Shown here piece after piece: positions 42,011 to 60,286 of a stretch of DNA of 64,000 nt. The stretch comes from a virus, in IMG/VR virus record IMGVR_UViG_3300046007_003718, positions 1 to 64,000 of that record; one strand, 5' to 3'. How positions within the stretch are numbered: position 1 is the first letter of the stretch; the number at the start of each line of letters is the position of its first letter. The translations under genes and the position numbers were made by a program. The notes under the pieces are model-generated. The model was not told the origin of the DNA and did not search any database. It saw only the letters and a list, made by a program, of their open reading frames with translations.

Positions 42011-42019
42011 GGAACGACA

Positions 42020-42045
42020 AAGGGCCACCCCGGAAGGTGGCCCTT
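42020..42045 (-). terminator. Terminator hairpin after the helicase C-half
   Basis: AAGGGCCACC/GGTGGCCCTT. Confidence 0.7.
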
Positions 42046-42072
42046 GTCTCCTGCCCGTTTATCCCGTGACCC

Positions 42073-43110
42073 CTAGAAGGCCGTCACCTCCTCCACCTCA
42101 TCCTCGGACAGCAGGCCCGCCTCCACGATGAAGGGCGAGACCCCGGTGATGTTGCGCCCGTAGACGGAGGTGCTGCTGACGAACAGAACGTCCTCGGCGC
42201 GGGTCATGGCGACGTATGCCATGCGGCGCTCCTCCTCAACGTCCTGCGGGGTCTTGGCGAGCGCGTGGGGCAGCAGGCCCTCGCTCATCCCGGCGATGAA
42301 CACGACCGGCCATTCCAGCCCCTTGGAGCGGTGGATGCTGAGGATGGTCACGGCGTCGTCCTCGTTCTCGCCCCGGAGGTCGGAGGCCTTGGCGGTCACG
42401 CTCTCCTGCTCCACGAACCATGCGACGAACGCCGCGAGGTCGTCCCCGAACTCGGCCCCGGAGAGGGCTACGTCCTCCACGATTGCGATGGAGCCGTCGC
42501 CGTTGGTCTCGGGGGTCTCGGTGTCCTCCTCGGCCTGATCGCGCAGCCATGCGGCCACCCCGGAGTCCTCAGCGATGCCGCGCACAATGTCAATCACGGG
42601 CACCTTGCCGACCATCTCACGGTACTTGCGAATGAGGGCGATGAAGGCGTCCATGTTGTCCTTCTGGCGACGGTTTATACGGGCGTCCTTAAGGCCAAAG
42701 AACGGGTCGTTCGGGCAGGCAGCGTAGGCCTGACGGGCGACACCGGCACCAAGGAACCGCGAGGGCGTGGACAGGGCCGTGGTCAGGGCCTCCTCGTCGG
42801 CGTTGCCGACGACCACGCGCAGGTAAGAGGTGATCGCCTGAGTCTGGTACCGCTTCCAAAACGACGGGGAACCGATGATGCGAAAGGTGAAGCCAGCGCG
42901 GGTAAACGCGCTTTCCAGCGGGCGGGTCTGACGGTTGGTACGGACCAGCACGGCGATGCTCGCGCCGGGGACACCGGCATCGCGCAGGGCCTTGATCTGG
43001 GTGGCGATGTTGTCGGCCTCCTCGCCCTCGTCGTTGTAGTGCGCGTAGTTGATGGGGTCCAGCCCGGTGGCCGGGATGATGAACTCAGGGATATCGGTGG
43101 TGGTGTCCAT
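42073..43110 (-). CDS. UvrD/PcrA-like helicase, C-terminal half
   Basis: IAVLVRTN, SIHRSKGLEW (motif V), EEERR.AYVAMTRA (motif VI); own AAGGAG RBS. Confidence 0.92.
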   Translation of the reverse strand: MDTTTDIPEFIIPATGLDPINYAHYNDEGEEADNIATQIKALRDAGVPGASIAVLVRTNRQTRPLESAFTRAGFTFRIIGSPSFWKRYQTQAITSYLRVVVGNADEEALTTALSTPSRFLGAGVARQAYAACPNDPFFGLKDARINRRQKDNMDAFIALIRKYREMVGKVPVIDIVRGIAEDSGVAAWLRDQAEEDTETPETNGDGSIAIVEDVALSGAEFGDDLAAFVAWFVEQESVTAKASDLRGENEDDAVTILSIHRSKGLEWPVVFIAGMSEGLLPHALAKTPQDVEEERRMAYVAMTRAEDVLFVSSTSVYGRNITGVSPFIVEAGLLSEDEVEEVTAF

Positions 43111-43135
43111 GTGGTCTCCTTAGTCGTGTAGAGGC

Positions 43136-43188
43136 ATCGTACAGGAAGGGCCGGGAGGATGCAAGCCCTCCCGGCCCCTCGTTTATCC
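43136..43188 (-). promoter_or_regulatory. Promoter TTGCAT-17-TACGAT inside a GC inverted repeat, plus a TAAACG box
   Basis: -35 at 43164-43159 lies in the loop of GGGCCGGGAGG/CCTCCCGGCCC. Confidence 0.7.
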
Positions 43189-43191
43189 GGG

Positions 43192-44271
43192 CTACCCGGC
43201 CAGCACCTCCACCGGGACGCCCTCAGCCTCGTCGTGGTCACGGTGCGGGGCGACCTCCTTGCCCAGCCGCTCCTTGTTGTGGGCGATGAGGCGGGCCGCA
43301 GCCTCCACGATGGGGCGACGGGAGCGGTAGTTGGTACCAAGGTTCACGACCGTCACCTCGCCCTTAGTCTGGGCGATGAACTCGGCAGGGACCGCGCCCC
43401 GGAACGAGTAGATGCTCTGGTCGTCGTCCCCGACCATCGTGAGGTTGGAGGTCTGCGATGCCAGCACCCGCATGAGGCCGAACTGCACCGGGTTGCAGTC
43501 CTGCGCCTCGTCCACGAACACCCACTTGACGCGGCCGATCACGGCCTCGCGCACCTTGTCGTCCTTGGCGGCAGCGAGACCCCGGATGCCCATGCATGAG
43601 AAGGTGACGCTAATCACGCCGCCCTGCCGACGCTTCCAGCCCCGGTCGCGGCCCTTACCCTGAACCGCCCAACCCTCGTCCAGCAGGCGCTCCATGATCT
43701 TGTAAACGGTGCCCACCACCGGGTCGGCATCGGGCAGGGAGAGGTACTGCTCGGCGGTGAGGTTCTGGTCCATGATCTTGGACACGGCCTTGGCGATCTT
43801 GCCAGCCTTGCGGGGCATGTCCACGCCGTACTCGGAGCCGCCCCACTCGCTGTCGTTGGCGAGGTTGTGGCCGAACGGGCAGTAGCGCGAGGGAGCCTCT
43901 ACGATGCCGCGCACCATGCCTGTCACCTGACTCGGGGACAGCAGGGAGCCGCCGTACTTGCCAGCGTTTATCCGCTTACCCTTCTGCTGGCGGTAGAACT
44001 TGTACCCCAGCGAGTGCAGGGTGCCAACGTGGGCCAGCCGCTCCACGACCTCATCACCGACAAGGGTGGCAAGGCGGGACTTCATCTCCTCGGCGGCAGC
44101 CGTGGTGAAGGTAGCCAGCACGATGCTCTCGGGGGCCTCGCCCTCGGAGATGAGGCGGGCGACACGGTGAACCAGCACGCGGGTCTTACCGGAACCAGCA
44201 CCAGCGTTAATGACCAGCGGCCCCTCGCCGTGGTCAATCGCCGTCTGCTGCTCGGGACTCATGGTAGCCAT
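43192..44271 (-). CDS. UvrD/PcrA-like helicase, N-terminal half
   Basis: Q motif, AGAGSGKT, TFT..AA.EM, DEAQD, VGDDDQSIYSFRGA, NYRS; start re-called at MATMS (GGAGG RBS). Confidence 0.92.
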   Translation of the reverse strand: MATMSPEQQTAIDHGEGPLVINAGAGSGKTRVLVHRVARLISEGEAPESIVLATFTTAAAEEMKSRLATLVGDEVVERLAHVGTLHSLGYKFYRQQKGKRINAGKYGGSLLSPSQVTGMVRGIVEAPSRYCPFGHNLANDSEWGGSEYGVDMPRKAGKIAKAVSKIMDQNLTAEQYLSLPDADPVVGTVYKIMERLLDEGWAVQGKGRDRGWKRRQGGVISVTFSCMGIRGLAAAKDDKVREAVIGRVKWVFVDEAQDCNPVQFGLMRVLASQTSNLTMVGDDDQSIYSFRGAVPAEFIAQTKGEVTVVNLGTNYRSRRPIVEAAARLIAHNKERLGKEVAPHRDHDEAEGVPVEVLAG

Positions 44272-44315
44272 GCTCTTTCCTCCTCGTTCGGCGGGGCCGT
44301 TCCCCGTGTTCACGC

Positions 44316-44359
44316 ATCGTACCACAGGTGGTTCTGAGATTGCAAGTCCTCGTTTAGAC
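44316..44359 (-). promoter_or_regulatory. Promoter with TAAACG box
   Basis: GTCTAAACG-N5-TTGCAA-18-TACGAT. Confidence 0.75.
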
Positions 44360-44389
44360 GGGGTGCCGCATTGGCGTTTGGGCGCGAGT

Positions 44390-44930
44390 AGCACACCTTG
44401 TCTGAATCCACAAGTACCCCTTGTGCGTACTTGCTACAAAGTCGGTCCCGAGATTGTAAAGTCCCTGCTCCGAGCAGGCACTTTCACCAGAGCCGTTCTA
44501 CGGGCCTTGGAGGGATTCCCGAGGGTCGTTACACCTGAGACCTGTAAAGTCCCTGCTCGTAGCGACTTTCGGGGGTTGGCACGGAGGCCCGAGAATCGCC
44601 TGAGAGCGATTGTGGTGAGACTTTGTGCGAGATTGACACAAGCAAGTTGAGGTCGCTTGTGCGGATTCAGCACAATCTCAGTTGCTTGCACTCGCAAGGA
44701 CTCAGTTGCACTTGCAAGTACCTTGTAGCACTTTGTCACAAGAATCCCGTTAAAGCCGTTGGGTTTCTTGGGTATAAAAGCCTGAGATGTTGTTGGGATT
44801 CTTGTGCTGATTTCGCACAATGTTGTTGCAGTAGCAAGTACCTTGTTCAGTTTCGCACAAGGTCACGCTTGTAGGTATCCGCACAATGTAGTTGCAAGTG
44901 CAAGCACAGCGTTTACACGCGGTCCTCGGG
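44390..44930. repeat. Non-coding TTG/CAA-rich tract with direct and inverted repeats (candidate origin)
   Basis: CACAAGAATCCC inverted pair (44737/44795); GCAAGTACCTTGT x2; TTTCGCACAA x2; TGTAAAGTCCCTGCTC x2. Confidence 0.7.
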
Positions 44931-44984
44931 GCCTTACACGATTGGGGAGAGAATGTCAAGGGCTACGGGCCTCAGATTTGACGC

Positions 44985-45080
44985 CCTGAGAGGCGATATA
45001 CGGGCCTCGGAGGGCCTACCCCATGCTAGGACATTCGGGAAGCATGGAAGGCCCGTGTGTGGCCTCCTGTGGCCTCCTAG
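44985..45080. repeat. CCCATGCTAG-core element, copy 3
   Basis: Core at 45020. Confidence 0.85.
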
Positions 45081-45118
45081 GGGGTATCGGGGTATCCGGG
45101 CCTGTCCATCAACGAAAG

Positions 45119-45138
45119 AGGGGGCCTTGCGGCCCCCT
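45119..45138 (-). terminator. Terminator GGGGGCC-GCAA-GGCCCCC
   Basis: Identical hairpin at 46093-46110. Confidence 0.75.
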
Positions 45139-45170
45139 CCCTGTCCTGCTCCTCGTTTGTACGCGGTGCC

Positions 45171-45536
45171 CTAGACCGCTGCCTGCTCGGCCCGCTGCTC
45201 ACGGGCGAGGTCGTACAGAGCATTGGCGGCTGCGGTCTTGGTTGTGTAGAGGCCGACCTTCTCGCCACCACGGTCGTAGGCGTGCCACTTGCCGTTCGCC
45301 CGATAGACCTCGCCCAGATACATCTCGCTGCGCCAGCGGTAGTAGCCAACCGCGTGCGGATTCCGCATCTTAACGACCTCGCGGCCCTCGGTCACGATGC
45401 CGTCCTCCCATGCGTAGATGCCCTGCGATGCGTAGATGGTGCTGACCAGAGGCTCATGGGCGCTAACCTCACGATGCCCCCATCGGATGTTCTCGTTGGG
45501 GACATACTCCTCGTTCTGGATGGTCTGGATTCTCAT
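45171..45536 (-). CDS. Hypothetical protein
   Basis: AGGAG RBS; GC3-rich codons. Confidence 0.65.
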   Translation of the reverse strand: MRIQTIQNEEYVPNENIRWGHREVSAHEPLVSTIYASQGIYAWEDGIVTEGREVVKMRNPHAVGYYRWRSEMYLGEVYRANGKWHAYDRGGEKVGLYTTKTAAANALYDLAREQRAEQAAV

Positions 45537-45594
45537 GGGATTCTCCTGTTCGTTGGCTGCTGAGGCAGTCTAGCACGTTTGTACCGCGTGCGCC

Positions 45595-45885
45595 CTAGCC
45601 CTCCTGCGCCTCCATGTAGTCAAAGATTGCGTGAACGCCCTCCTTGGTGAACCAGATCACGGGGTCGCCGGGGTCGTAGTGGTCGTCCTCGTCCACGAAC
45701 ATCAGGCCCTTGGCGACCAGAGACCCGATCACCCCATCGGCCTCATGCTTGTTTCCGATGATGCGCTGGGCACCAGAGAGGTCAAGGTTGGAGTAGTTGT
45801 CGCTCAGTTGCCCCTCCCGGTCGTCGTAGTTGAGGGCGGCGGTCAAAAGGATTGCCTCGCGCTCGGTGATGTTGCTCATGGTCAT
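45595..45885 (-). CDS. Winged-helix-like hypothetical protein
   Basis: GVIGSLVAKGL...W.T.EG pattern. Confidence 0.55.
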   Translation of the reverse strand: MTMSNITEREAILLTAALNYDDREGQLSDNYSNLDLSGAQRIIGNKHEADGVIGSLVAKGLMFVDEDDHYDPGDPVIWFTKEGVHAIFDYMEAQEG

Positions 45886-45954
45886 GCTCCCTGTTCGTTG
45901 GCTGCCAGAGCAGCGTATCACAGATTCCAGACGTAGGCCCGATTCGCTGTGAAG

Positions 45955-46060
45955 CCCTGAGAGGCGTTCTACGGGCCTCGGATGCCTTCCCCCATGCTAG
46001 ACCCTTCCCAGACCATGCGAGGCCCTTCTAGGCCCCTTAGAATCGCTCCTAGGCCCTACC
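45955..46060. repeat. CCCATGCTAG-core element, copy 4
   Basis: Core at 45991. Confidence 0.85.
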
Positions 46061-46091
46061 GGGGGTCACGACCCCATCCCCGGATGCAGAA

Positions 46092-46111
46092 AGGGGGCCT
46101 TGCGGCCCCCT
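46092..46111 (-). terminator. Terminator GGGGGCC-GCAA-GGCCCCC
   Basis: Hairpin followed by TTTCT on the minus strand. Confidence 0.75.
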
Positions 46112-46140
46112 CCCCGTTTACACGCCCTGTACCTCCCGGC

Positions 46141-47308
46141 CTAGTAGTCGTCCAGCACCTCGTCCAGAAGGTCGCGCAGGCGCTCCACCTCATCCCCGGT
46201 CATGGCGACCGACACCTGCGGGCCGTCCAGCGTGGGGAAGGCGTGGAGGGTGATGTTGGCATCCCCGTCGCCCTTGTCAGTCACGAACACCACGGGGCCG
46301 TGGTAGGTCTCAATGCTGCTCATCGTTTACACGCTCCTGTTCTCGTTGTTGAGGTGATGCTTGCCGCCACACTTGGGGCAAGCCCGGACGAACGTGAGTC
46401 GCCCGGTGCTGTTCTCCCTGAGCCAGAGGGTGCCCTCCTTCTCGGGCTTGCCGACGTACATGCTCATCCCCCGCCCGGTGACGGTGTTGCCACCGGGGCA
46501 GGGAGCAGAGATGAATGAGGTGGCCCCCATCGTTTACACCCCCTTCTCGTCGTTGGGAAGGAACATGGCCTCGCGCTTGGCAGCCTTGGCGAACGACGAC
46601 CCGCTGATGGAGTACCTGCGGGGCCGGGACGGGGCGGCGATCAGAGCCGCGTGGAACTCGGTCGCCAGCGACTCGGCCTCGTAGGCGCTCGCCAGAGCAA
46701 CGTCGGCCTCCAACCCCTCGGGCAGAGCGTCGGCCTGCCGGTGGTACTCCTCGGCACGGGCTTCCAGCGCGTCCACGATGAACGCGGCCTCACCGATGCA
46801 GAGGTTACGGATGGAGACTCGGTACGGATTACCCATGATGCTGTCCTTTCGGTTGGTGTTGGGGCATTGTAGCACGCCCCTCAGACGGATGCCCTCCCCG
46901 TTTATCCGGGGAGGGGAGGCAGGGCAGGGCGGTGGCCCGCCCTGCCCCTGTCGTTTAGACCCCCTGCTCGGTGGTCTCCTCGTCCTGCGGCCCCTCCTCG
47001 TACTCGCGGGCGGCAGCGAGCAGCACCTCGGCAATCTCGCGGGCCTGCTGGGCGGTGAACTTGGCGTGAACGTATCCCTTCTCCTGCCCCTCGGAGGTTG
47101 CCAGCGTCCCCAGCACCATGACCGTCACCTCACCGAACTTTCCGCCAGCGATCTGGTAGTCCTGCCGGTGAGTCGTGAGGGAGTCGTTTCGCTCATGGGT
47201 GAATGAGGTGCCGTCGTTGGTGACGTAGGTGTACGGGCCGACGCCCTCGCCCTGCACCGTGTAGGTGGTGTAGTCGTCGTTCTCGTAGTTGCTGATGTTG
47301 ATGCTCAC
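46141..47308 (-). CDS. Four small hypothetical genes (46141-46323, 46327-46530, 46534-46836, 46955-47308)
   Basis: TAAACGATG stop-start junctions and RBS-supported starts. Confidence 0.6.
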
Positions 47309-47441
47309 GATGAAACTCCTCGGTTCAGTTGCTTGCTGAGGGGAAGTGTACCACACCCCTCGGACGGATGCCCTGCCCGTTTATTCGGGGAGGGGCGAGG
47401 GAGGGGGAGGGGAGGTGGCCCCTCCCCCTCCGGGGTGGTGA

Positions 47442-48203
47442 CTAGGCCCCGTGGGGAGCCGTCACCTTGGGCTTGCGGGTCTTGCGGGCGACCACCTGCA
47501 TACGCTCGCCGCAGCAGGGGCAGATCGGCGTGCCAGCCGCTTCCAGCCACTTGGCCGTCATGTTGAGGTTGTAAACGTCCTTGCCCTCACCGCTGGGGTC
47601 GCAGCCACGGGTGCCGTCCTCCTGCGGGGTGCAGCAGGCGACCTTCACCAGACGGGTGGCCTGCGGCTTGTGGACGACGTTCATGCCCTTGTGCGGGTAC
47701 TCGCCCAGCGACTCGCGCAGGCGGGCAGTCAGGGCCACGAAACGGTCCCCGGCGTAGGTGGCGGTGGGCTTGCCAGCGAGGCCGATGGTGCGAATCATCT
47801 CCACGAACGGACCCTTGTGGCCGTTCTTGTTGCCGTCAATGGCGTGGACAATCTCATGGGCGAGAACGTCCAGCACACCCGGCTCGCGCTCGTCGTTGCC
47901 CAGCGTGTCCTTGCGGCCCGTCTTGGGGCCGATAGCGTGGGCAAGGGCGGGCGACACGGTGATGTGCCGCACGTTGCCCTCGGGCGAGGAAGTCTCATGG
48001 TAGGCCATGCCGACCACGGAACCCTTGCCGCTCTTACCCAGCCACGCCCGCTTGTGCGAAAAGGACAGGTGCGGGGCGACGGTGTAGCCCTCGGGCATCG
48101 GGAAGCCAGCCTCGGCCAGAATGGTGAGCAGGCCGTCAGTTGCGGCGGCGATGTAGGACTCAGGCGTGTCGTGGACCTGAGCGTGAATCGGTGAGTAACC
48201 CAT
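47442..48203 (-). CDS. SprT-like zinc metalloprotease with C-terminal Zn ribbon
   Basis: LAHEIVHA.....GH.GPF; CC...C...CPCC. Confidence 0.8.
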   Translation of the reverse strand: MGYSPIHAQVHDTPESYIAAATDGLLTILAEAGFPMPEGYTVAPHLSFSHKRAWLGKSGKGSVVGMAYHETSSPEGNVRHITVSPALAHAIGPKTGRKDTLGNDEREPGVLDVLAHEIVHAIDGNKNGHKGPFVEMIRTIGLAGKPTATYAGDRFVALTARLRESLGEYPHKGMNVVHKPQATRLVKVACCTPQEDGTRGCDPSGEGKDVYNLNMTAKWLEAAGTPICPCCGERMQVVARKTRKPKVTAPHGA

Positions 48204-48373
48204 GATGCTGTCTCCTTGGTTGGTTGCTGTACGGGGATTAAACCAGATGGTGTGAGCCGTGTCAAGTGCCCGGTGTGGGCGGCTCGTTTATCCCTGCCCC
48301 GGCAGTATGACAGATGCTCCGGGGGAATACAAGCCCTCCCCGAATCCTCGCTCGGGGAGGGCGTTTAGATGCC

Positions 48374-49030
48374 CTAGAGGTCGGCCTCGTACTCATCGGC
48401 CAGCCGGTCCAGCGTGTAGGCCTGATACTCGGCCTCCCGGTGGGTCTCCATCCACTCACGCTCGCGCTTGGGGTCGTAAGCGAACCCATCCTCATCCCCG
48501 AATCCTGCGGCGATATGCAAGGCATCAGCGGCCTTCTCACGCAGAGCCTCGGCTCCTGCCCTCAGAACCTCCACCCTCTCCTGCTGAATCATCCGGCTTG
48601 TTGCAACACCCATCGTTGTCTCCCTGTTCGTTGTTGGGGGACCGTAGCACAGATTGGGGAGAGGGCACAAGGCCCCGTTTATCCTTCCACCCACGACCAC
48701 ACCTCGGGGTCGGTAGGATGCTGCTCGGGGAGGGTGGCAAGGCGCGGCCATGCAGTCATGCCTTCCTGCTCCATGATGGTGAAGGCCGCGTTTACACGGG
48801 CGGTGATGTTGGTGAACTGCCCCTCACGGAGCCACTCCATGTACCGCTGCTCATCGCTCAACATGACCAAGCCCCCTAGTAAGAATCCACGCATCCAGAG
48901 CATCCTGAACAAACGATGTGATGCGCTCCTGCACCGTATCAAAGTCCACGGTGCCCTCCTGCTTGTCCCACTCAGCGGCGTCCAGCGAAACCTGAACGGA
49001 GATTGGCAGAGAGATGTTGCCGCTTACCAT
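48374..49030 (-). CDS. Three small hypothetical genes (48374-48613, 48679-48864, 48851-49030)
   Basis: RBS-supported starts. Confidence 0.5.
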
Positions 49031-49191
49031 GACACTTCCTCCTTGTGCTTACGCTTGCGCGTGTAACGGATGTTTACACGCTCGGGCGCATCCTTGCGCG
49101 AGCGCCTGACCTCAATGCGAACCCGCTGGCGCATACGACGCGCACGCTTAGGCTCAACGAACTTCTCCTCGTCCCGCTCTTGCTCGTACAT
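49024..49191 (-). CDS. 55-aa basic protein (not in the ORF track)
   Basis: AGGAG RBS and upstream promoter; MYEQERDEEK...YTRKRKHKEEVSW. Confidence 0.65.
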   Translation of the reverse strand: MYEQERDEEKFVEPKRARRMRQRVRIEVRRSRKDAPERVNIRYTRKRKHKEEVSW

Positions 49192-49254
49192 GGTATCTCC
49201 TAATAGTTATCTATCTAACTAATGAATATCTATCTAACTGCTTGCTGCTCAGAC

Positions 49255-49296
49255 AGCATACCATCTCAGATGAGAGATGCAAGGCCTCGTTTATTC
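49255..49296 (-). promoter_or_regulatory. Promoter with TAAACG box
   Basis: GAATAAACG-N5-TTGCAT-16-TATGCT. Confidence 0.75.
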
Positions 49297-50892
49297 GCCC
49301 TCAATCTCCATACCAATCGTGAATCCTAGGCTAGCACCAGACTTGGTGTTGTAAACGCCGTCAGGCACCCATCCGCTAACATCGTAGAACGACTCCAACA
49401 CAGTCCCCTTCACGGATTCTAGCGAACGGTGAAGGGTAAACCACACTTCACTCTCATGCACCTTGCGCTCAACTAGAAGCCACGGACGCTCCTGCTGCCC
49501 AGCAACCTCCAACCGAACATTGTCTGGGTCAATGTGGAAATCCTGATCGTAGTCCTCTAGGATTTCCACAATCACCTTATTGGTGATCTGAACATCGTCA
49601 GGGATGCAACTAACACTCATCGTTTAATCCTCCTGTATGATTTCGGCAATATAACCTGCATAGCAGTTAAACTTCTCCTCATCGTTGGCTGATGAAGGAA
49701 CCTCAACATAACCATCGTGAACCCAAACATCATGCCCATCTATGCAACCGGGCTGACCGTCAAAGAGCATACGGCAGACCTGATGTGAAGTGCTGCCGTC
49801 GTCGTAGAACTGCCACCAATCATCAGAGCCAAAGCGGAGGCGATGAAGGGTCACAGTCTCCTGCTCGTACTTCTGGGGAGGCATGATTAAACGCCCCACT
49901 CAGAAAGGTTGCCATTGGCACGCTCAGGGACTCGGACACGGTACTCGGGGTAATAGACCTCACCGTTGGTGGTGTCCACGATAGCAACCACTACCCACAC
50001 ACCCTGTGCGTCAGCGTCCACCACAGAGTCGTAGATAGAGGTGTCGGCGTACTCGGCAGCCTCGTCCCACTCATCCTTGCCGTCGTAGAGAACATCGAAG
50101 TCCCCGCCCTTGACGACAGCGATGAAGCGGTACAGGTTGCCGTCAGAATCCCAGAATCCCGACTGCGGGGAGCCATGACGGGGAGTTCCCCACGCACTCT
50201 GAATCCTGTCCATCATCTCCTCAGCCTGCTCGCGCTGCTCAATCTCTGCATCGGTAATGCTCATCAGAATCTCCTTTAGTTTGTTGCTGCTTAGACAGCA
50301 TAGCACCTCAGACCTAAGATGCAAGTGCCCGTTTATTCGTCGTAGTAGTCGAAACTGTCTGAGACCGGACCTTCCTGCTGTAGCAGGGAGAACACTTCCC
50401 ACGCCTCGTCCTCGTCCTCTATGTAGAAAGAAACGTCCCGTAGTCCAAAGCCAGCACCAGAATCGAACTGATAACCCTTAGACTCTCGGATGCCCTCAAA
50501 GAAGTCCTGCAACTCGTTTAGACGCTCAATGGGATATGAAGCAGAAACAACAAACATTATCCCTCCCTCCACTCAGGCCCCTCGTCCAGAATGTCCATAA
50601 CCTGAACATCTCCGGGCTGGCAATCAATAAGGTCATGCCAAGCCCAACGGTCGGGGCAATCATCTGAGGCATCGGTTGTGATGCGAAGGGTGATGGTGTA
50701 AACGCGCATCTCTCTCACGTTCAGAACGTAAGCAGGAAACCTCTCACCACAGTCGTAGCACTTGTAGCCACAGACCAGAACCTCACGGTCATGCTCATCA
50801 ATCTCAACATCATGCCCAGACTGCGAGGTGACGTTCTCAGACTGACAGTTTACACAACACTCGGGATTATCAACAAAGTTTACGGCACTCAT
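49291..50892 (-). CDS. Five small acidic hypothetical genes (49291-49620, 49624-49899, 49887-50264, 50333-50572, 50557-50892)
   Basis: Packed ORFs. Confidence 0.55.
50297..50338 (-). promoter_or_regulatory. Promoter with TAAACG box
   Basis: GAATAAACG-N5-TTGCAT-16-TATGCT. Confidence 0.75.
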
Positions 50893-50895
50893 CGT

Positions 50896-51075
50896 TTAAC
50901 CATCCTGTCGGGGAGTGATGTACCCAGCCTCAATCAGAGCCGCAGCCATGCGACCGTAAGAGCCTTGCAGGCTCCATGCCATACCTGTATCCACAAGGTA
51001 CTGAAAGAGGTCAATGATACCCTCCTCATCCAACTCACCCTGCTCATACTCCATAATCGAACTAACGTAATCCAT
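50896..51075 (-). CDS. 59-aa phage protein with W.LQG.YGR motif (not in the ORF track)
   Basis: AAGGAG RBS; [29 protein letters not shown]. Confidence 0.7.
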
Positions 51076-51193
51076 TTCTATCTCCTTACCTAGTCAGAGA
51101 AAACGTAAGACCGGCCACTACCCACACGGCCAGAACGCCAACTGCGATTACAATAAAAGTTTCCATCTTGCCCTCCTCGTTGCTTGCCTTGTA

Positions 51194-51236
51194 AGCATAG
51201 GGAATATATCTCACTAATGCAACTATTCGTTTATTC
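51194..51236 (-). promoter_or_regulatory. Promoter with TAAACG box
   Basis: GAATAAACG-N5-TTGCAT-17-TATGCT. Confidence 0.75.
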
Positions 51237-51239
51237 AGC

Positions 51240-52803
51240 CTACCACTCAAAGCGAGCGGAAAGAACCTTGTGGTCTGGGAACAAACACCTAACCTGCTCC
51301 ATCGCTCGGTCCACCATCTCTGTGATGATTTCACTATCCTCAAGGTTTCCCCAAACATAGTCTAGCGTGTCCTCGTTCTGCTCGGTCAGGCTTGCCTCAT
51401 AGGTAAAGTTATCGGCAATACCATTCTCACTAACCATCTCAACGGTAACAAACATTTAGATGCGCTCCTCGCTCATTGTGTCCTGTCGGATGTTCTCCAT
51501 CTCCTGTTCGTTGAGCCATGCGTAAGCCTCGGCACGACTCTCCTCGTCAGCCGCAGCCTGTCGCAGAATCTCGTTCCACTCCTCGGGGTCGGTGACATAG
51601 GACTCAGCATCAATCTCGTCCCGACGACGCCGATACTCCTCCTCAATCTGAGCCTCAATGATGCCCTGTCGGTACTCAACCCAGAGAGTCAGAGCCTCAT
51701 CAAGAATGACGAACTGCTCAATGGTGAGGTCTCCGTTTACAGTCAGGTCGTCCAGACGGTGATAGAGAGCCGTAGCCTTGTCCTGCATAATCATAACATC
51801 GTCCTGCATCATTGGTCTATCTCCTTTCGTGCTTGCTCGTCAAGCATACAGGTTAATAGGAAAAAGTGCAACCCCTCGTTTATTCAGCGTAGAAGGGGTC
51901 GGGGCACCAATGCGAAGCAATCTCCATCTCTCGCTTCCACGAACGCTCCTCCTCCACACACTCGGAGAATCGCTCAATAATGATAGAACCGATGCCCTCC
52001 AACTCCTTGCGGTCTGTATCAATCTGGTTCATCGTGCAGTACGAAGCATCCTCAGCATAATCCCAATCACCATCAGGCTCCTTGGTCAGCACAGAGAAGC
52101 GAAGCAGAGGCTCGTCGGTAGGGTCGGTAGGGTCGAAGTCCCCATACCATCCCTCGCCAATGTAGTCCCACTCAACCTTCACAGTCTGGTCGTCGTTCGT
52201 AACCTCTAGTGGAATAAACGACTCAATCTCAGTTGTCCAATCCTTACTCATCTTTCCTCCTAGCGTCCGTAGTAGTCTGGGTGATTCATACGATACTTAG
52301 CCTCCTGCTTCATGGCTGCGATACACTCATTATCGCAGCGAGCAGGCAAACCAAGCGTTACCACGTTATACAGCATAACACTTCCAATCACAGAAAGCGA
52401 AGCGTAAAGAATAACCTTCCACATCATCGGTTTCTCCATTCAGTATAAACGCCCACAACTTCATTGTAGATATCGAACGGCTCATCTAGAGTGTGGCCTG
52501 CATCGTCCCGATAGCCACAGTCGTCGTTAGAACCAACATCGCATGAAAGATAGCACGCAAGACCTTGGAAATAGTAGTCAGGCTCTAGCATGTTTATTCT
52601 CCATCCTCGGGGTAGCCAGCCTGTGAGCGCAGGCTATCAATGAGTGACTGAATAAACTCAACATTCTGCTCGTCAGCATCCTCGTAAGATGAGGAGTCAC
52701 GAATCTCCTCAACATTCTGCCAGAGAGACCAAAGAATGTAGTCCAAGTCCTCAATCGGCAGAGTCACGTTTACATCTCGGTTCCAAAAGTCGTTGGTAGT
52801 CAT
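51240..52803 (-). CDS. Small acidic hypothetical genes (51240-51455, 51456-51812, 51880-52251, 52594-52803)
   Basis: RBS-supported ORFs. Confidence 0.55.
51843..51885 (-). promoter_or_regulatory. Promoter with TAAACG box
   Basis: GAATAAACG-N5-TTGCAC-17-TATGCT. Confidence 0.75.
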
Positions 52804-53007
52804 TACATAACCTCCGGTGTAGGAATGTGCAGTCGAAGTCCACCAGCCTCGTAATCGTTCAGAGCATAGTGGATAGCATCAGGCAGGGTAGCAATCATAG
52901 TCTCTACCTCCCCACCGTCGCCGGGACCACCATGATACCAGATATCCCAGCACCTATCATCCATCGCGGGATAAATGTCGTACACGAAGCCCTCGCCGTA
53001 GATACGA

Positions 53008-53331
53008 TCAATAGTCCTCATCGTCGTCCTCGTCCATCTCAAAGTCGAACTCCACGATGAGGCGAGCGACACGACCATCGTTGTCGTACTCAACGAACAC
53101 CGGATAAACGCCGTCACCCCAGCCGGTGCTGGTGCAGACCGCATCAGAAAAACGACCCTGAGTAGAGAACTGCCCCGCCCGCTCGTCGCTCAGGCTAGCC
53201 GCACAAGCGCGACCATATGGGGAATCCTCACCGTACTCGCCGTCAAGGACGTAGCAGGGGTCCACAACGAACACCTGACCAGAATCAACGGGAACCTGTC
53301 CCACCTTCACGCGCATACCAGACCTACTCAT
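53008..53331 (-). CDS. DUF4241-like protein
   Basis: VDSGQ...DPCY...STGWGDG.YPV. Confidence 0.7.
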   Translation of the reverse strand: MSRSGMRVKVGQVPVDSGQVFVVDPCYVLDGEYGEDSPYGRACAASLSDERAGQFSTQGRFSDAVCTSTGWGDGVYPVFVEYDNDGRVARLIVEFDFEMDEDDDEDY

Positions 53332-53359
53332 TACTGCCTCCTTTGTTGCTTGCTCGTCA

Positions 53360-53403
53360 AGTGTAGCAGATCAAGTCTGCCGATTGCAACTACTCGTTTA
53401 GAT
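53360..53403 (-). promoter_or_regulatory. Promoter with TAAACG box
   Basis: ATCTAAACG-N5-TTGCAA-18-TACACT. Confidence 0.75.
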
Positions 53404-55174
53404 GCGGGTACGCTTGCTGCGCTGATTGACCCTCATCAGAATCTCGTAAACCTCAGCCTCATTCACCGCCTCATGCAGAGAATCAAACTCAGCATCCGTG
53501 AACTCGCTCTCATCAATCACGATAAGATCATCCTCGTCGCATCCACCCCAACTGCCGTCAGCGGCGCTCATCCAGATCACACGACCCATGACTAGGCCTC
53601 CCGAATGATCGTAGAGATATACTCAGCGAGCATACCACGCTCATCAGAGTCGTCAGGAAGGGGAATAACGATGCTGCCCACATTGGTCTTAGTGCCGTGG
53701 GCAGTCGTGGACTCAATCAGGATGTTTATACGACCACCCGGCTTGGCAAAGATGCCGACCTCGTAAGTGCGAGCGTAATCCTTTCCTGCATCACGCTCCA
53801 CCTTGTAGATATAGGCCACACCGTTTACATCGTTATTGGTACCAATCATATTATGCCTTCCTTTCGTAAGAATCGTACTTTTCGTTTAGAATCGGTCGAA
53901 ACTTCTGCTCAACAAGCGCCTGAGCAGTTTCATACACTTCCTGAGCAAATGCGTTTGTCCACGCCCCGGTCATATCAAAAGAGTCAGGGAGATAAGTGTC
54001 GAACAACTCATCCACCAACTCGCAGGGAGAGGGCCAATAAACGCTGTCCACGTTCTTATCCCAATACTCCCATGCGATGTTAGCGAATACCTTGCCCACA
54101 TACTCTGCATTGTTATTGGAATAAATGACCACACCATAGATGCTCCCATCGAAGGGGTCCACATACGGAGTAAAGGTGATGCCTGCATCGTACTCCACGG
54201 TCTCCTGAAAAGTCTCGCGGAAGTCTTGCAGCACAGCCTTGCTAACAGAACCATAGGACTCACACATTAGGCATCCCACCCACTCACGCGGGCCTGCTGC
54301 TTGGCCTTACGGCGCTGGGTCTTGCGACTCTGGATGCCATGCGTCTGAGAGTGCATGATAGCGAACCGCTGGCCGGTCGTGCTGGTGTCCTGCCGGAACT
54401 TCTTTCGCTGCTTGTTGGTCACGATCATCTCCTTTGCTTGATGCTCTAGCATCATACAGTATGGAATCCAAAAGTGCAACTGCTCGTTTATTTGCCTTCC
54501 TCTAGGGCAATCAGAGCATTGACAATCTTGCGGGCCTTCTCCTCTGCTTGCTTCATGTAAACGCTACGGTCGCCCTTCACATCCTTACGGACAACGATGA
54601 TACAGACCTCTCCACCCTCCTCATCCATGACCTCAATATGGTCTGCATGAGGAAGGGCAAAGTCGGGTTCCTCGTTCCAATACCAAGCATACATCATCTA
54701 AATCACCTATCCGTAGATGAGCCGACCGAACACAGCAATCTGAACCAGAACATCGGCGCAGTCTGCGTCAAGATAGCCGGGGTCGTTCTCACGAAGGGCA
54801 CGCTGAATGTAGCCGGTGATGCTGGTGTTAGCAGGAGGCTCCTCCTGAACAAAGGTCTGGAAAGCCTTAGTCAGATTCTCAGCATTGACCGTATAAATAG
54901 GGGATTCGGTCTCAGCCACATCCTCATTCTCGCGGAGAGTAACCTCGTACCACAGTTCATCAAGAATGTCTCCACTCTCAGGCTTAGTTACCTTAATGTT
55001 TAGAGCGTCAGCCCAATAGAAGGAAGCGCCATAGGAACCATCAAAAGCCCCGACAAGCACAGCGTCCACCATATGCGCGGTAATAGGAAGGGTCGTCGTG
55101 ACCACACCAACCACCGTGGACTTGTCGTACTTCTCCTCTAGAGCCTTAAGACTCTCCGATACATAGTCACTCAT
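53398..55174 (-). CDS. Small hypothetical genes (53398-53589, 53592-53849, 53851-54279, 54267-54428, 54488-54697, 54707-55174)
   Basis: Packed ORFs with RBS. Confidence 0.55.
54451..54493 (-). promoter_or_regulatory. Promoter with TAAACG box
   Basis: AAATAAACG-N5-TTGCAC-17-TATGAT. Confidence 0.75.
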
Positions 55175-55203
55175 ATTGCTCCTTTCGTTTTCCATCTGAA
55201 TAG

Positions 55204-55246
55204 ATGGTATCAGATCAACCAACCAACTGCAACTACTCGTTTATAC
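55204..55246 (-). promoter_or_regulatory. Promoter with TAAACG box
   Basis: GTATAAACG-N5-TTGCAG-17-TACCAT. Confidence 0.7.
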
Positions 55247-55477
55247 TCCACGCCAACCAGAACAGGTGCCGCATGTGCAACAGCAACTTGTGGGGGATGC
55301 AAGCCAAAGGTAAGCGATAGCCCTCTCAGCATAACGTCCTTTACTATCGGCACAATAAATACGCTGCCAAATAGAGATTGTATCATCGCAGAAGTAACGC
55401 CTATGGGGGTTATCCCATGCCCTCTTATAGATAGGCTTATTAAACCACTCATTATTAGAGCATCCACATCCACACAT
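55241..55477 (-). CDS. Cys-rich small protein
   Basis: AAGGAGG RBS; CGCGC N-terminus and CCCTCGTC C-terminus. Confidence 0.65.
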   Translation of the reverse strand: MCGCGCSNNEWFNKPIYKRAWDNPHRRYFCDDTISIWQRIYCADSKGRYAERAIAYLWLASPTSCCCTCGTCSGWRGV

Positions 55478-55502
55478 AAAAGCCTCCTTTAATGATTTAT
55501 AC

Positions 55503-55596
55503 TACCCCTAGCGGGAGTCGAACCCGCGATAAACTTCCGCGTAAGCCAAGCGTCCTTGTGCGTTACCGGCGTCGTTGCCGCTAGACCATTAGGGGC
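55503..55596 (-). ncRNA. tRNA-like RNA with the anticodon arm replaced by a long hairpin
   Basis: Acceptor GCCCCTA/TAGGGGT+A; D arm GTC-TAGCGGCAAC-GAC; T arm GCGGG-TTCGACT-CCCGC; no 7-nt anticodon loop. Confidence 0.8.
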
Positions 55597-55602
55597 ATGA
55601 GT

Positions 55603-55630
55603 ATTATAGACGGTTCCACAATCAAGTCAA
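55603..55630 (-). promoter_or_regulatory. Near-consensus sigma70 promoter of the tRNA-like RNA
   Basis: TTGACT-16-TATAAT, 6 nt before the first G of the acceptor stem. Confidence 0.75.
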
Positions 55631-55846
55631 AGGTAGGCTTGACGTAACAATGCCCGCTCCCTGCTCACCCGTCACCGACAACCGATTCCTTTAGTTTACT
55701 TATTATTAGTATAAATGGCTCTCGCGCCTAACGTCCCATATTGGTTGTTAGGATTTCCCGACCTACCAATCGGTTTCTTACGGAGATTCCTCCACCCCAC
55801 TAGGTCAAGAGTGGTAGCCCTCGCCTAGTAGGTCGTGAGAACCGCT
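55631..55846 (-). ncRNA. Candidate structured ncRNA released by the hammerhead
   Basis: Pairings GGTTCTC/GAGAGCC, CGACCTAC/GTAGGTCG, CCTAAC/GTTAGG, AACCGATT/AATCGGTT; no long ORF. Confidence 0.55.
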
Positions 55847-55891
55847 GACGCCTCTCGGCGTTTCGTCCTATCAGGACTCGTCAGAGCGGCT
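55840..55891 (-). ncRNA. Type I hammerhead ribozyme
   Basis: CCGCT-CTGACGA-GTCC(TGATA)GGAC-GAAA-CGCC(GAGA)GGCG-TC^AGCGG: full catalytic core, three stems, GUC cleavage triplet. Confidence 0.93.
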
Positions 55892-56041
55892 AGTTGCCAT
55901 TACCTTCTTATGAACCTGCATAACCCAACCATCCTCAAAGTCGTGAGCATCACACGCCTCGCCAAGACTTTCGTAGGGGCCATAAGCCATGTACCCCGTA
56001 GAGAGATTACCGACAAGAAATACAAAAGTGTAGTCACCCAT
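55871..56041 (-). CDS. 56-aa protein whose stop codon lies in hammerhead loop II
   Basis: AAGGAG RBS; promoter TTGCAT-17-TATGCT at 56100-56072. Confidence 0.6.
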   Translation of the reverse strand: MGDYTFVFLVGNLSTGYMAYGPYESLGEACDAHDFEDGWVMQVHKKVMATSRSDES

Positions 56042-56103
56042 GAATCTATCTCCTTTCTCGCTTGCCCAACAAGCATACAGCACTCAATCTAGAAATGCAA
56101 GCC

Positions 56104-58617
56104 TTAGTCGGACTCTGAATAAACGTAACTGACCTCTCCCGAAAGATGATCTGAATGGCGATCATCAAAGAAACGATTGTCGTAAGTACCCCAGACTTCC
56201 TCTCCGGGGACATTAGACGCTGCTGCTTTAGACGCATCAAGGATAGAGTTAGCCAAACTCATAGCCTCGTCTGGATAGAGAGATAGGATAAACCCGAAAG
56301 TGCTATCTCCCGAATCAATCACAACTTGGTCCTCCACAACTGAAACATAGAACTTACTCATACTCACTCCAAAGTCTGCTTGCCACACACCTGTAGATTA
56401 GCAGCCCCCTATCCCCGTGTCAAGGGATAGGGGGCAACCGATCTAAATGGCCGCGCCGAAGAACTCGGGCTGCTCCTCTGGGGTGTCCACGGCCTGCTGC
56501 TCAAAGGCGGGAGTCGGAGTAGAGAACTGCATGAGCGAGTAGTCGCCGCTCAGGACAAGAGCGACCTTAGTGAGAATGCTCCTCAGAGCCTTATTCTCCT
56601 CCTCCACAGCCTCTAGACGCTGAATAAACTGAATGGAAACGGCCTCGTCGTCCATGCGCTCGTTGAGCATACCCTCAACGACATACTCCACACGGGAGTC
56701 GAAGTCGTCAATGTCGTCGGAATCGAAGGTGCGATAGCGAAGGGCCTCCTCAACTCCGTCAGAGAAGTCAAGGTTGTTGTCAATGTAGTCCTGCACGCGA
56801 CCATCAATGTCAGACTCATCCACGACAGTCTCAGCGATATCGCGGATAAACGACTCGCTGTTATAGACAGCCTCGGTGGCCTTCTCGTCCACCAGAGTCT
56901 CAATGTCTGCGGGCCAATCCTCAAAACTCATTACAGTCTCCTCTCGTTGATTGCTTCCCTAGAAGCATACAGTATGGATTCTAAAAGTCAAGGGCTAGTG
57001 CCAACCCTCGTCCTGCTCATCTAAACACTCAGTCAGAGCCGCGATAGCACTCTCCAAAGCGGGAGGGGTATAATCCAGACCAGCAATCGTGCCATTGATT
57101 AGCGCACGAATCTCGTCCTCGTACAGATAAACAGGCATCTGCCCCTCATCAAGCACGTTTTCCCAATCGCTAGAGATAACGCTAAGAGATGCAACTCCGC
57201 TCAGAGGCACGACGCACTCGTAAACAGGAGCAGCATCGCGGATAAACGACCGTCTTGCCATGAAAGGCTTACCCACAGAAAGATGCTTCTGAAAATCAAT
57301 AAGACGACGCTGCTTTGCAGGCTCGGGATTCTCCCTAGCCCACTCAGTAGTGTTCTCCCAATCAGTATAAAGGGTGCGCCCATCAACAGTACGAATCTGG
57401 ATGTAAGAACTCACTACTCCACCTCAATATCGTTAGAAAACTTCATAACGTCCCAGCCATAATAACCCTCAATCAGAGAAGCGGCCTCCTCAATCGCAAC
57501 CTCCCGGTCAAAATCAGGAGGAGCAATCACCGAAGTTGTGAGGGTGAAATAATCTCCAATAAAAGTCACATTCATCATCTATCCATCTCCTTTCATCGCT
57601 ACGGGAGTAGCGTAGCATAGAATCACTTAACAGGCAAGGTCCGAAGGTGACGGACCCTATCTCTTGCCCAACGCCTACGAGGCTCGGTAAACGGGTAGTT
57701 GTTCTCAATGCAACCATCCAGCATCTCCAAAACCCTGCTCTCGTCAGACCCCGTTTGTACCGCGAAGTCGTGAATCATCCCGCGAGCGATCTTAAGGTCG
57801 TGAAGGTTCTTTTCCCTGAGAAGTTTACGGTCGTCAGTAGCCTTGTTCTTACGAGCCTGCCGAATAAGACGCTTGGCCTCATCCTTTACCTCACCAACAA
57901 GGTGCTTGTTTGCACCAAGGAAGGTCTCAATGCAGTTGGAACCGGCGATGAGGTCGCCCCCATTGTCCACATCAGAAAGGTGGAACTCATACCGGATTCC
58001 ACCGTGACCACACACCTCGCAGGTAGTGTAGTTACCGGGACCGCGATCAACAGCCCCGACAAGACGAAGCCGGTGAGCATCCCTCTGCTCCTCGGGAACA
58101 CGAATGTCCTCAAAGAACTTCTGGATACCACCGGCCTGTCGCTTGCTGAACTCCATTAGAATCCCCTCTCGCTTGCTTACGAAGGAAGCATAGCATACCC
58201 ATTAGGGGGAATCAAGCCCTAGTAGTGACCATCATCATAATCACAGGGGAAATCAGGCTCGCGGGGTTCATCATCGTACCATCCACTTGCAGCCTCATAC
58301 TCAGACTCAGCGATATCACAACAAGCCTCAAAACTCAACTCAGCAACGATGTATCGTTTAGATGCCTCTGGCTCATCCTTAACGATACTGTCGTACAAAC
58401 TCTGAATCTCCTCCTGAGTACCAATCTCGTCTGGAACCTTGTCGTAGTTGATGATATCTCCCGTTTCGGGGTCTGTATCATACAGCCCGTACAAACCGCG
58501 CTCATAGACGAGTTCTGCCTGCTTCTGAAAAGAATACTCAGGCGGGTCGTAATAAGAATCTGGCATATGAAACGACACTACAAGTCCTCCTTTGTAACAG
58601 GAATACAGTTTTCGCAA
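56104..58617 (-). CDS. Hypothetical genes (56104-56361, 56443-56931, 56995-57414, 57623-58156 with CxxC-H/C motif, 58219-58617)
   Basis: RBS-supported ORFs, several behind TTG(A/C)NT..TATGCT promoters. Confidence 0.55.
56394..56435 (-). promoter_or_regulatory. Promoter TTGACA-17-TAATCT with the -35 in the loop of a GC hairpin
   Basis: GCCCCCTATCCC-TTGACACG-GGGATAGGGGGC. Confidence 0.7.
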
Positions 58618-58807
58618 TATGGAAGCCCCTCAGTCCAAGTAACTGCCTTGGTTGCTGGGTTAATCAGCACCACTTTGTCGGTCTCAACCGTATGACCACA
58701 CATACATACAGTAGTCTTTGTGTCCATCTTTCCTCCTCTCCCCCTATTGCTCTGTCGCTCAGACAGCATAGCATAGGTCGTTGGCTAAAAGCAAATGCTC
58801 GTATAAA

Positions 58808-58927
58808 TCATCGGGCGTGCCAAAAGTTTGGCTTAGGAACGCTAGCCTTGCGAGGCTTGCTGACCTTCATCTTAGCAACACGAACCTTACGCGGCTTGCT
58901 AACACCTGTACGACGAACCTTACGCAT
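58808..58927 (-). CDS. 39-aa Arg/Lys-rich protein (not in the ORF track)
   Basis: AAGGAG RBS; MRKVRRTGVSKPRKVRVAKMKVSKPRKASVPKPNFWHAR. Confidence 0.65.
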   Translation of the reverse strand: MRKVRRTGVSKPRKVRVAKMKVSKPRKASVPKPNFWHAR

Positions 58928-59443
58928 GTAATCTCCTTTGTTTGATCTATCTAACTTACGAAGTAACTCTATCAACTTACATATCTTAAGTCAAGTCATC
59001 CTCGTCATCTTCATCTATAACTATAAATGTCCTTATGAACATCAATAACATTCCTGAGATTATAGCCCATACCCCGGCGTTCCAATCTCCTGTAAGCAAA
59101 TAAAAGGTGCCGAAAAAGAAGCAGACGAGAGCAACGAATAAACCCGCTGCTCTAACCAAGTCAGTCATTAACAATCTCTTTCCACGCTGCCCATGCCGCC
59201 TTACTTGCTCTATCTAGTCGAGACCATCGCTCTTTGTAGAATCTAACTCTAGTCTGAATAGCATTGTAGGATTCCATCTGCATCTCTACTTTGAGAATGT
59301 CTTTACTTCCGGGGAAGTCTGGTACGTTGGGTTTGCGAATGGTGCTTGCTATATCCCTCGCTATGAGGTAATCGCGGTGCGCCTCATTTGCACGACGAGA
59401 TATAGCCTTCCAAGCCCTATAGAACAAATCTGCGTTCTTTGGG

Positions 59444-60286
59444 CTAGGCTCGGACATAACGAGTACCCCTACGCTCTCCCTCAATGTTTACACGCTCATC
59501 GTTCTGTAGAACATAACGCACGCTAGTCCACTCAGTAGTCGAAAGACCGAAGTGCGAGATGAGTTCTGCCTTAGACGTTGGCCCATTGTCTGAGATAAAC
59601 TGAACAATAACATTCATCACATCAGTATCAACCGTAGGCGTCTTGTCCTCAACGATAACCTCATAAGTGCGACCGGGGACAGTATAGTTTGTCCCTCGCT
59701 TGGTGCCGTTCTTAACTACCTTGCCTGTCTCAACCGCAGCGTTGATTACCTCGGAATAGATCGAAGCCGGGATAAGGTCGCCAATATGCTTCTTAGTAAC
59801 AGGCTGGTCTGACTCCTCTACAAAGAGGATAAACTCGTCGCGTACAGCAGCAATCCTCTGAGCCTTCTCGTCGCTCTGCTTGCGCCCCGGCTTGTACCGA
59901 AGGACGCGACCATACTCATCAACGGGGGCACCGCGAGCAATAGCAGCCTGATCGGCTCGCTCCTGACACTTGGCAATCCACTTTCCCAAGTAATCCTCAC
60001 GATGGTTAATAGCCTCGTCCTCGGGCAGAGAGCGAAGCAACTCCATACGGTTATCATGCACCTCGTTTAGATCCTCAAAAGGAAGCGTAATGCGATCATT
60101 GTCTGATGTAAGAATAGTTGCTTCCTTATCCTGTGCCGCAAGCACAAGTGCATATCGAAAGCCACCCTCGCTATTCCAAAAACTAATCGTGTCACCGCGA
60201 ACGGGCGCAACCTTGGTCTGCATATCAACCTCCTTTGACTTAACATTTCTCTTAGTAAGTTTGTTACTCACTCGTTTCTTACCCAT
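59444..60286 (-). CDS. Protein with two winged-helix-like repeats
   Basis: Duplicated G..RGT.Y wing motif (GTKRGTNY, GERRGTRY). Confidence 0.6.
   Translation of the reverse strand: MGKKRVSNKLTKRNVKSKEVDMQTKVAPVRGDTISFWNSEGGFRYALVLAAQDKEATILTSDNDRITLPFEDLNEVHDNRMELLRSLPEDEAINHREDYLGKWIAKCQERADQAAIARGAPVDEYGRVLRYKPGRKQSDEKAQRIAAVRDEFILFVEESDQPVTKKHIGDLIPASIYSEVINAAVETGKVVKNGTKRGTNYTVPGRTYEVIVEDKTPTVDTDVMNVIVQFISDNGPTSKAELISHFGLSTTEWTSVRYVLQNDERVNIEGERRGTRYVRA

Follow-up and report, generated by a model that had tools for sequence, protein, structure and literature searches.

In the genome of a large aquatic myovirus, three RNA elements follow one another on the minus strand: a type I hammerhead ribozyme, a strongly folded RNA, and a tRNA-shaped RNA that has no anticodon. 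On balance, and with moderate confidence, we read this cassette as a self-processing non-coding RNA unit, in which the hammerhead would set the 5′ end of the folded RNA and RNase P, acting at the tRNA mimic, would set its 3′ end.

The sequence of events that we envisage is as follows. Transcription begun upstream would run through a small ORF and into the hammerhead, which would cut after GUC (between 55847 and 55846), leaving a 2′,3′-cyclic phosphate on the upstream mRNA and a 5′-OH on the downstream RNA. The freed 5′ end would then exchange ribozyme stem I for a helix of its own, P1, closing a compact domain of four or five helices that includes a 6-bp loop–loop contact. Host RNase P would cut between 55597 and 55596, fixing the 3′ end of an RNA of about 250 nt and releasing the mimic, which could then mature through trimming of its 3′ end and through the work of the phage's own CCA-adding enzyme. 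We suspect that the mimic, being unable to decode, is in the first place a processing and stabilizing handle, and that the cassette chiefly yields the ~250-nt RNA, which would most likely be stable and serve in early infection by binding protein or in regulation. The elements under discussion, with positions in the window except where noted, are these:

55871..56041 (codons 56041-55874), minus strand: 56-aa ORF, with its last codons and stop inside the hammerhead
55840..55891, minus strand: type I hammerhead (Rfam RF00163, 29 bits), predicted cut between 55847 and 55846
55717..55846, minus strand: 5′ domain of the middle RNA, with closing helix P1, hairpins P2-P5, and a multi-way junction
55812..55817, minus strand: P2 loop, CUACCA, complementary to the P4 loop
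55763..55768, minus strand: P4 loop, UGGUAG, complementary to the P2 loop (6-bp kissing contact)
55660..55696, minus strand: conserved block of 37 nt, identical in three variants (from alignments)
55636..55654, minus strand: hairpin H6, within an otherwise variable spacer (from direct reading)
55603..55630, minus strand: sigma-70-like promoter, TTGACT-16-TATAAT, 11/12 matches
55503..55596, minus strand: tRNA-shaped RNA with acceptor stem, D arm, and T arm, the anticodon arm replaced
55477-55241, minus strand: Cys-rich ORF, found only in the window's version of the cassette
108363-110273 of the full record (L233:4364-6274), minus strand: CCA-adding enzyme of 636 aa, with an HD domain and a C-terminal extension of ~170 residues

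The window, the stretch of 64,000 nucleotides analyzed here, takes up the first 64 kb of a virus record in IMG/VR that is 110 kb long and about 70% complete, and the DNA runs that hold this stretch are lake-water metagenomes. Its phage genes include a baseplate gene, ThyX, and a UvrD-type helicase. The cassette is in an early-gene region, inside a segment at 41-60 kb made up of small minus-strand ORFs, where G+C content is 50-66% as against about 38% elsewhere. None of the ten ORFs neighboring the cassette gave an informative Pfam or PHROG match, and no close DNA relative of the window was found among GenBank phages. No prophage copy was found either, since the sole match in a scan of prokaryotic genomes was a random coding sequence. 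A reading of the locus as an attP site was rejected; a tyrosine integrase was found in none of four phage records. The most G+C-rich part of 41000-60000 holds the UvrD-type helicase, split into two adjacent minus-strand ORFs, of which 43192-44394 encodes the N-terminal domains and 42073-43110 the C-terminal one; the split could be a frameshift, a natural division of the protein, or foreign DNA.

Relatives of the cassette were recovered with a hammerhead pattern, with a D-loop/T-loop pattern, and in one metagenome scan. They add three further versions to that of the window, and the four variants represent three or four lineages: (i) a single phage present as L014, L088, L201, and L202, with 99.97% identity between copies; (ii) one cassette version shared by L142, L205, and L206; and (iii) L204, a 2-kb contig close to the window. 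The three RNA parts grouped together by the original prediction occur together in every variant found, albeit in a sample of only four, and the order of hammerhead, folded RNA, conserved block, and tRNA mimic is constant throughout, with 250-309 nt of non-coding RNA from hammerhead to mimic. The genes flanking the cassette differ between variants, upstream as well as downstream, and L014 has other genes on both sides. Because only four variants are known, the counts of covarying pairs given below are small and most helices never vary. Pattern scans with the conserved block, the promoter element, and a junction motif of the middle RNA returned the same relatives or random matches only.

The ribozyme and the folded RNA

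A complete hammerhead was expected on the minus strand, and one is there. A match to the Rfam type I model covers 55841-55890 (E 1e-4, with 1.6 kb searched), and all positions of the catalytic core (CUGANGA, GAAA, and a cleavage triplet ending in a base other than G) are present and invariant in the four variants. Stem I is open (6-7 bp), stems II and III are closed, and among the variants stems I and III each have one pair that is changed on both sides. Scores for the window and its relatives (28.5-30.2 bits) lie below the Rfam gathering score of 34, and there is no gathering-level match. A structural descriptor combining the core and the three helices finds a single hammerhead site in the whole 110-kb record. 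Self-cleavage after GUC is what we would predict for this element from its sequence.

A pattern built on the core of the window's hammerhead finds at least 119 stretches in IMG/VR. Stem I flanks the core directly, with at least 5 bp and usually 6, in 81 of the 89 unique phage sequences that match the pattern, and 48 different stem I sequences occur among the matches; a shifted control gives almost none. Since stem I is kept across many different sequences and the control is nearly empty, we regard these elements as a common and real class of phage ribozyme. About a tenth of 122 hammerhead contexts have a tRNA within 600 nt.

Hammerheads were also seen within arrays of tRNA genes. At L026:8398-8525 (plus strand), a type I hammerhead sits inside an array of 17 tRNAs; cleavage is predicted precisely at base 1 of tRNA-Tyr, and the 5′ acceptor strand of this tRNA forms stem I of the ribozyme. 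This arrangement suggests, as far as sequence can tell, that a ribozyme may make tRNA 5′ ends there without need for RNase P. In L015 (~585-621) and L038 (2183-2219), a hammerhead of the same class as that of the window lies between tRNA-Asp and tRNA-Ile in a 7-tRNA array.

Behind the hammerhead, the original prediction placed some 210 nt of self-complementary non-coding sequence. The stretch is closer to 250 nt, and its first 130 nt or so are very stable: the 135 nt following the cut fold with -57.9 kcal/mol (z = -5.3), and none of 200 shuffled sequences was as stable. RNAalifold assigns 42 pairs to the 5′ domain, of which three, all in P5, are changed on both sides when the window, L204, and L205 are compared. 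Several pairs of P1 and P2 are changed on one side in the same comparison and still paired, and one P2 pair is broken in L205. The loops of P2 and P4 that could form the kissing contact read UUGCCA and UGGCAA in L014, that is, with two both-sided changes within the 6 bp; shuffling of the loops, in which 4-nt loops keep their composition, gives p of about 0.13-0.24 for this contact. The 5′ domain of L014 cannot be aligned by sequence, yet it too adopts a closed multi-branch fold (z = -3.75), and direct reading finds two features common to both sequence types, GAAA at the junction that follows P4 and AUGGG in the last loop. In both, P1 overlaps the 3′ strand of hammerhead stem I; since the two helices share these bases, P1 should be able to form once the ribozyme has cut and the 5′ fragment has left. 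These comparisons lead us to judge that the folded domain is under structural selection. The covariation looked for at this locus was thus found in hammerhead stems I and III, in P5, in the loop–loop contact, and in the long arm of the mimic described below, in small counts throughout.

The Rfam scan that matched the hammerhead left the middle RNA (55597-55846) without a family, as had been anticipated: Rfam 15 has no match to it, with E values of up to 10 admitted for the window and up to 1 for the relatives. A covariance model of the 5′ domain found no match in 99 hammerhead-bearing phage loci; it missed the diverged copy in L014 as well, and we consider it too narrow for that reason. The absence of an Rfam 15 match, the conservation at the level of structure, and the detection of this RNA in metatranscriptomes make it a good candidate for a new family.

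Past the 5′ domain comes an AU-rich linker, in which L205 and L014 have extra hairpins, and then the 37-nt block. The block has a 17-nt core, made up of two 7-nt direct repeats, that is invariant in all four variants; no other copy with up to three mismatches, and no complement, was found in the genome. The stem of H6 is common to the window and L205, with different loops, and in L014 a different 5-bp hairpin occupies the same place.

A tRNA shape without an anticodon

The prediction of a tRNA-like RNA lacking an anticodon has held up well. The mimic's acceptor stem is 7 bp long and its D stem 3 bp, with GG in the D loop; the variable region has 9 nt, the T stem 5 bp, and the T loop is canonical. 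CCA is not encoded. In place of an anticodon arm there is an irregular arm of about 13 bp (55569-55537) capped by a 4-nt loop. The tip of this arm, a 4-bp stem with a GACG loop (55558-55547), is invariant, as is its CCG/CGG base; in the middle, direct reading finds indels and paired substitutions among three lineages, with the helix kept. At pair 1:72, L014 has G-C and the other three variants G-U. No single discriminator base is kept (A, U, G, and U), which argues against a specific aminoacylation identity. ARAGORN reports a 96-nt "tRNA-Cys(aca)" at 55502-55597 and, with introns allowed, Val(gac) or Val(cac) with "introns" that differ between relatives; since the calls change with the settings and with the variant, we conclude that the mimic has no consistent anticodon.

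Similar results came from covariance models. RF00005 scores the mimic at 20.3-22.7 bits in the relatives, where the gathering score is 29, and gives no match to it in the window's own record at E 0.01. ARAGORN calls no tmRNA, and RF00023 aligns only the T arm. The same arm is all that aligns to the YrlA/bacterial Y RNA model (RF02553), at 11.8 bits against a gathering score of 69.

The mimic is 92-100% conserved where the adjoining DNA is unalignable. In the relatives, 11 ordinary tRNAs are clustered 56-70 kb from it, beside a gene for a CCA-adding enzyme, and at such a distance the mimic is not a stray member of the tRNA array. Each of the four phage records has the gene for this enzyme, with PolyA_pol, RNA-binding, HD, and tRNA nucleotidyltransferase domains. 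In the window's record it lies at the very end, so the tRNA cluster of this phage is probably beyond the contig.

One part of the original prediction did not fare as well, namely that the middle RNA acts together with the mimic. A pairing search and direct reading found no conserved base pairing between the two that is common to the lineages, and linkage is left as the sole basis for the idea.

One transcript or two

Transcripts, which were expected at the locus, do map there. Contigs from two seawater RNA runs cover 55615-55777 and 55615-55758, a salt-marsh RNA contig covers 55676-55835, and a wastewater contig, from a run of uncertain kind that may be DNA, covers 55669-55833. These four contigs (156-167 nt, 95-99% identity, depth 3-5) lie wholly inside the predicted middle RNA, and none crosses 55846, enters the mimic, or continues into unlike sequence. 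Their outer limits are 11-18 nt inside the predicted cuts; being contigs and not reads, they give no proof of true ends, strand, or abundance. Over the ORF, the ribozyme, and the mimic the RNA runs have no cover, which is to be taken as absence of cover only. The contig limits fit ribozyme-made 5′ ends of the middle RNA, and the pattern is that expected of a discrete RNA of about 250 nt, not of carry-over phage DNA.

The second promoter foreseen in the original prediction, ahead of the mimic, is near consensus in three variants; the lineage of L205 and L142 has no −35 box, and its leader is shorter by 3 nt. The 18-nt 3′ part of the promoter (55620-55603), ending in TATAAT, is invariant in all variants, and the element is absent elsewhere in the genome and from IMG/VR apart from the relatives. 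Its predicted start coincides with the first base of the mimic in the window, L204, and L014; in L205 a start from it would fall inside the acceptor stem. The distance from the 37-nt block to the −10 box differs by 11 bp between lineages, about one helical turn, and the block and the invariant promoter spacer could be regulatory sites at the level of DNA.

Much of this would also be accounted for if the locus consisted of two independent units, an arrangement we consider possible but not probable. The hammerhead would then only sever the upstream mRNA, the mimic would be a separate gene with its own sigma-70 promoter, the block and the invariant spacer would be binding sites for a phage or host regulator, and the folded RNA would be a stable by-product or a leader. 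A start placed on the mimic's first base would make RNase P unnecessary in three of the variants; the direct repeats of the block, its lack of variation of a synonymous type, and the shift in spacing by about a turn of the helix in L205 are all in keeping with DNA sites. It is harder to reconcile two units with the presence of the block and the −35 box, together with H6, as RNA in the two seawater contigs, with structural selection on the folded domain, or with the behavior of the ribozyme, which goes with the structured RNA and not with the gene upstream: L014 has an unrelated upstream ORF and the same ribozyme and RNA. With the −35 box gone and the leader shortened, L205 requires the processing of a longer transcript to obtain a correct mimic 5′ end. 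This loss, and contigs that run through the −35 box, make co-transcription followed by RNase P cutting at least as likely as a separate transcript for the mimic, and the confinement of the contigs within the predicted RNA favors one precursor cut by both ribozyme and RNase P. We favor the view that the promoter is an additional or lineage-specific input beside that precursor.

One might go further and propose that the ~250-nt RNA founds a new functional class of phage RNA, with a compact kissing-loop fold, a strictly conserved single-stranded tail, and both ends released by RNA-based processing, and that this RNA and the mimic jointly hijack or block a tRNA- or ribosome-associated factor of the host early in infection. 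We offer this as speculation and think it rather improbable.

The function suggested in the original prediction, in which the processed RNA and the mimic form a joint decoy or scaffold against a host defense that targets RNA or tRNA, for example by sequestering an enzyme that recognizes the tRNA elbow and acceptor stem, seems to us unlikely. The cassette does lie in a variable early region of small genes, its parts are strictly linked, and the mimic has retained acceptor stem, elbow, and T loop while losing the anticodon. An RNA with no anticodon loop cannot, however, mimic the target of anticodon nucleases. The lack of conserved pairing between the middle RNA and the mimic also speaks against a joint function, and no defense or RNA-repair gene is linked to the cassette, with no RtcB, RNA ligase, or Ro/TROVE gene found in the window's record (~70% complete).

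Very improbable, in our view, is a riboswitch-like leader, in which the folded domain would control a short ORF starting in the block, or read-through into the mimic. The domain does resemble an aptamer in its closing helix, its multi-way junction, and its kissing loops, and the AU-rich linker is followed by a Shine-Dalgarno-like motif and a TTG within the block. But direct reading gives this ORF a length of 14-27 codons with only the first four to seven conserved, no Rfam riboswitch matches, and no terminator or sequestering helix is common to the variants. Equally improbable, and already disfavored, is a chance adjacency, in which a hammerhead of a type common in phages, some intergenic sequence, and a tRNA pseudogene in decay lie side by side by accident. 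Intergenic DNA of phages is indeed rich in type I hammerheads, and roughly one in ten has tRNA genes nearby, but chance does not predict a constant order of parts, a mimic so conserved amid unalignable DNA and so far from the true tRNA cluster, or an odd arm that keeps its pairing.

Known systems and neighboring genes

Intergenic type I hammerheads (RF00163) have been described in phages (Perreault et al. 2011, PMC3088659). The window's ribozyme resembles them in its full catalytic core, its closed stems II and III, its open stem I, and its place between small phage genes. It differs in three respects: (i) it scores below the Rfam gathering threshold; (ii) the 3′ strand of its stem I doubles as the start of a conserved folded RNA; and (iii) in the cassette, two unrelated ORFs take their last codons from the 5′ half of the ribozyme. 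For most phage hammerheads, we know of no established purpose. Here, position, helix overlap, and co-inheritance tie the hammerhead to a structured RNA and thereby give it a concrete, testable job, the formation of the 5′ end of a non-coding RNA.

For the other end of the RNA, the closest logic we can point to is that of MALAT1 and mascRNA, and of the tRNA-like/miRNA transcripts of murine gammaherpesvirus 68, in which a non-decoding tRNA-shaped element recruits tRNA-processing enzymes and so sets the end of the adjacent non-coding RNA. The likeness lies in the use of a non-decoding tRNA shape as an end-setting handle, with RNase P cutting in the cassette being what we infer; those systems are eukaryotic or belong to an animal virus, and the 5′ end of the cassette RNA would be made by a ribozyme. 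If RNase P does make the other end at the mimic, the cassette would represent, in a virus of bacteria, the equivalent of the MALAT1/mascRNA logic and also of synthetic guide-RNA designs flanked by ribozymes and tRNAs. In phage T4, the tRNA cluster yields "species 1 and 2", stable RNAs with no assigned role that depend on tRNA-maturation enzymes for their processing; compared by description and not by sequence, they differ from the cassette in lying inside a tRNA cluster and in having no ribozyme.

The mimic itself enlarges the small set of known non-decoding tRNA look-alikes in phages. Like the tRNA-like domain of tmRNA, it has an acceptor stem and a near-identical T arm, lacks an anticodon, and puts a long helix where the anticodon arm would be. 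Unlike tmRNA, it matches the tmRNA model in the T arm only (14.9-18.6 bits against a gathering score of 47), has C-G and not G-U at 3:70, has no tag frame and no pseudoknots, and carries a 4-nt loop at the end of its helix. YrlA RNAs join their tRNA-like module to a Ro-binding stem that holds the ends of the molecule and go with a linked Ro (TROVE) gene, of which the window's record has none. Theta (HDV-like) ribozymes abut the 3′ end of true suppressor tRNAs in phages (Kienbeck et al. 2024, PMC10879173). They too are small self-cleaving ribozymes linked to a phage tRNA-type gene and implicated in RNA end formation, whereas the cassette's hammerhead lies 250 nt upstream of a mimic that does not decode, with a structured RNA between.

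The small ORFs beside the cassette appear to be neighbors of the unit. A promoter and a 56-aa ORF were expected to lead into the hammerhead; the ORF is real enough as a reading frame, and the promoter is weak and was not called by a consensus scan. The ORF's TGA stop (55873-55871) falls in loop II of the hammerhead. This ORF is a frequent, not a constant, companion of the cassette: in L204 and L205 a homologue lies upstream of the ribozyme and ends before it, and in L014 the unrelated upstream ORF, of 68 aa, likewise ends within the ribozyme. RSDES are the last five residues of both unrelated ORFs (window 55871-55888; L014:4237-4254, both minus strand), since this ending is encoded in each by the 5′ half of the hammerhead, with the stop codon in loop II. 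A profile search places the 56-aa ORF in a family of proteins of about 50 residues with 177 cluster representatives at E ≤0.001 and 25 at ≤1e-10, which has no Pfam or PHROG match; some of its members are fused into longer proteins. A word-indexed protein search returned the query itself as sole match, and searches of IMG/VR with the 56-aa ORF and a 78-aa ORF gave no related loci. The Cys-rich gene counted in the original prediction as a member of the cassette exists, but it is absent from the three other variants and is therefore not part of the unit. The 94-aa ORF that lies upstream of the 56-aa ORF in the window is missing in L204. Just upstream of the 94-aa ORF, at 56400-56435 on the minus strand, is a perfect 12-bp inverted repeat with a TTGACA hexamer in its loop; the same element stands ahead of the 56-aa ORF homologue in L204. 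One possibility is a module, promoter or stem-loop, that travels with small early genes.
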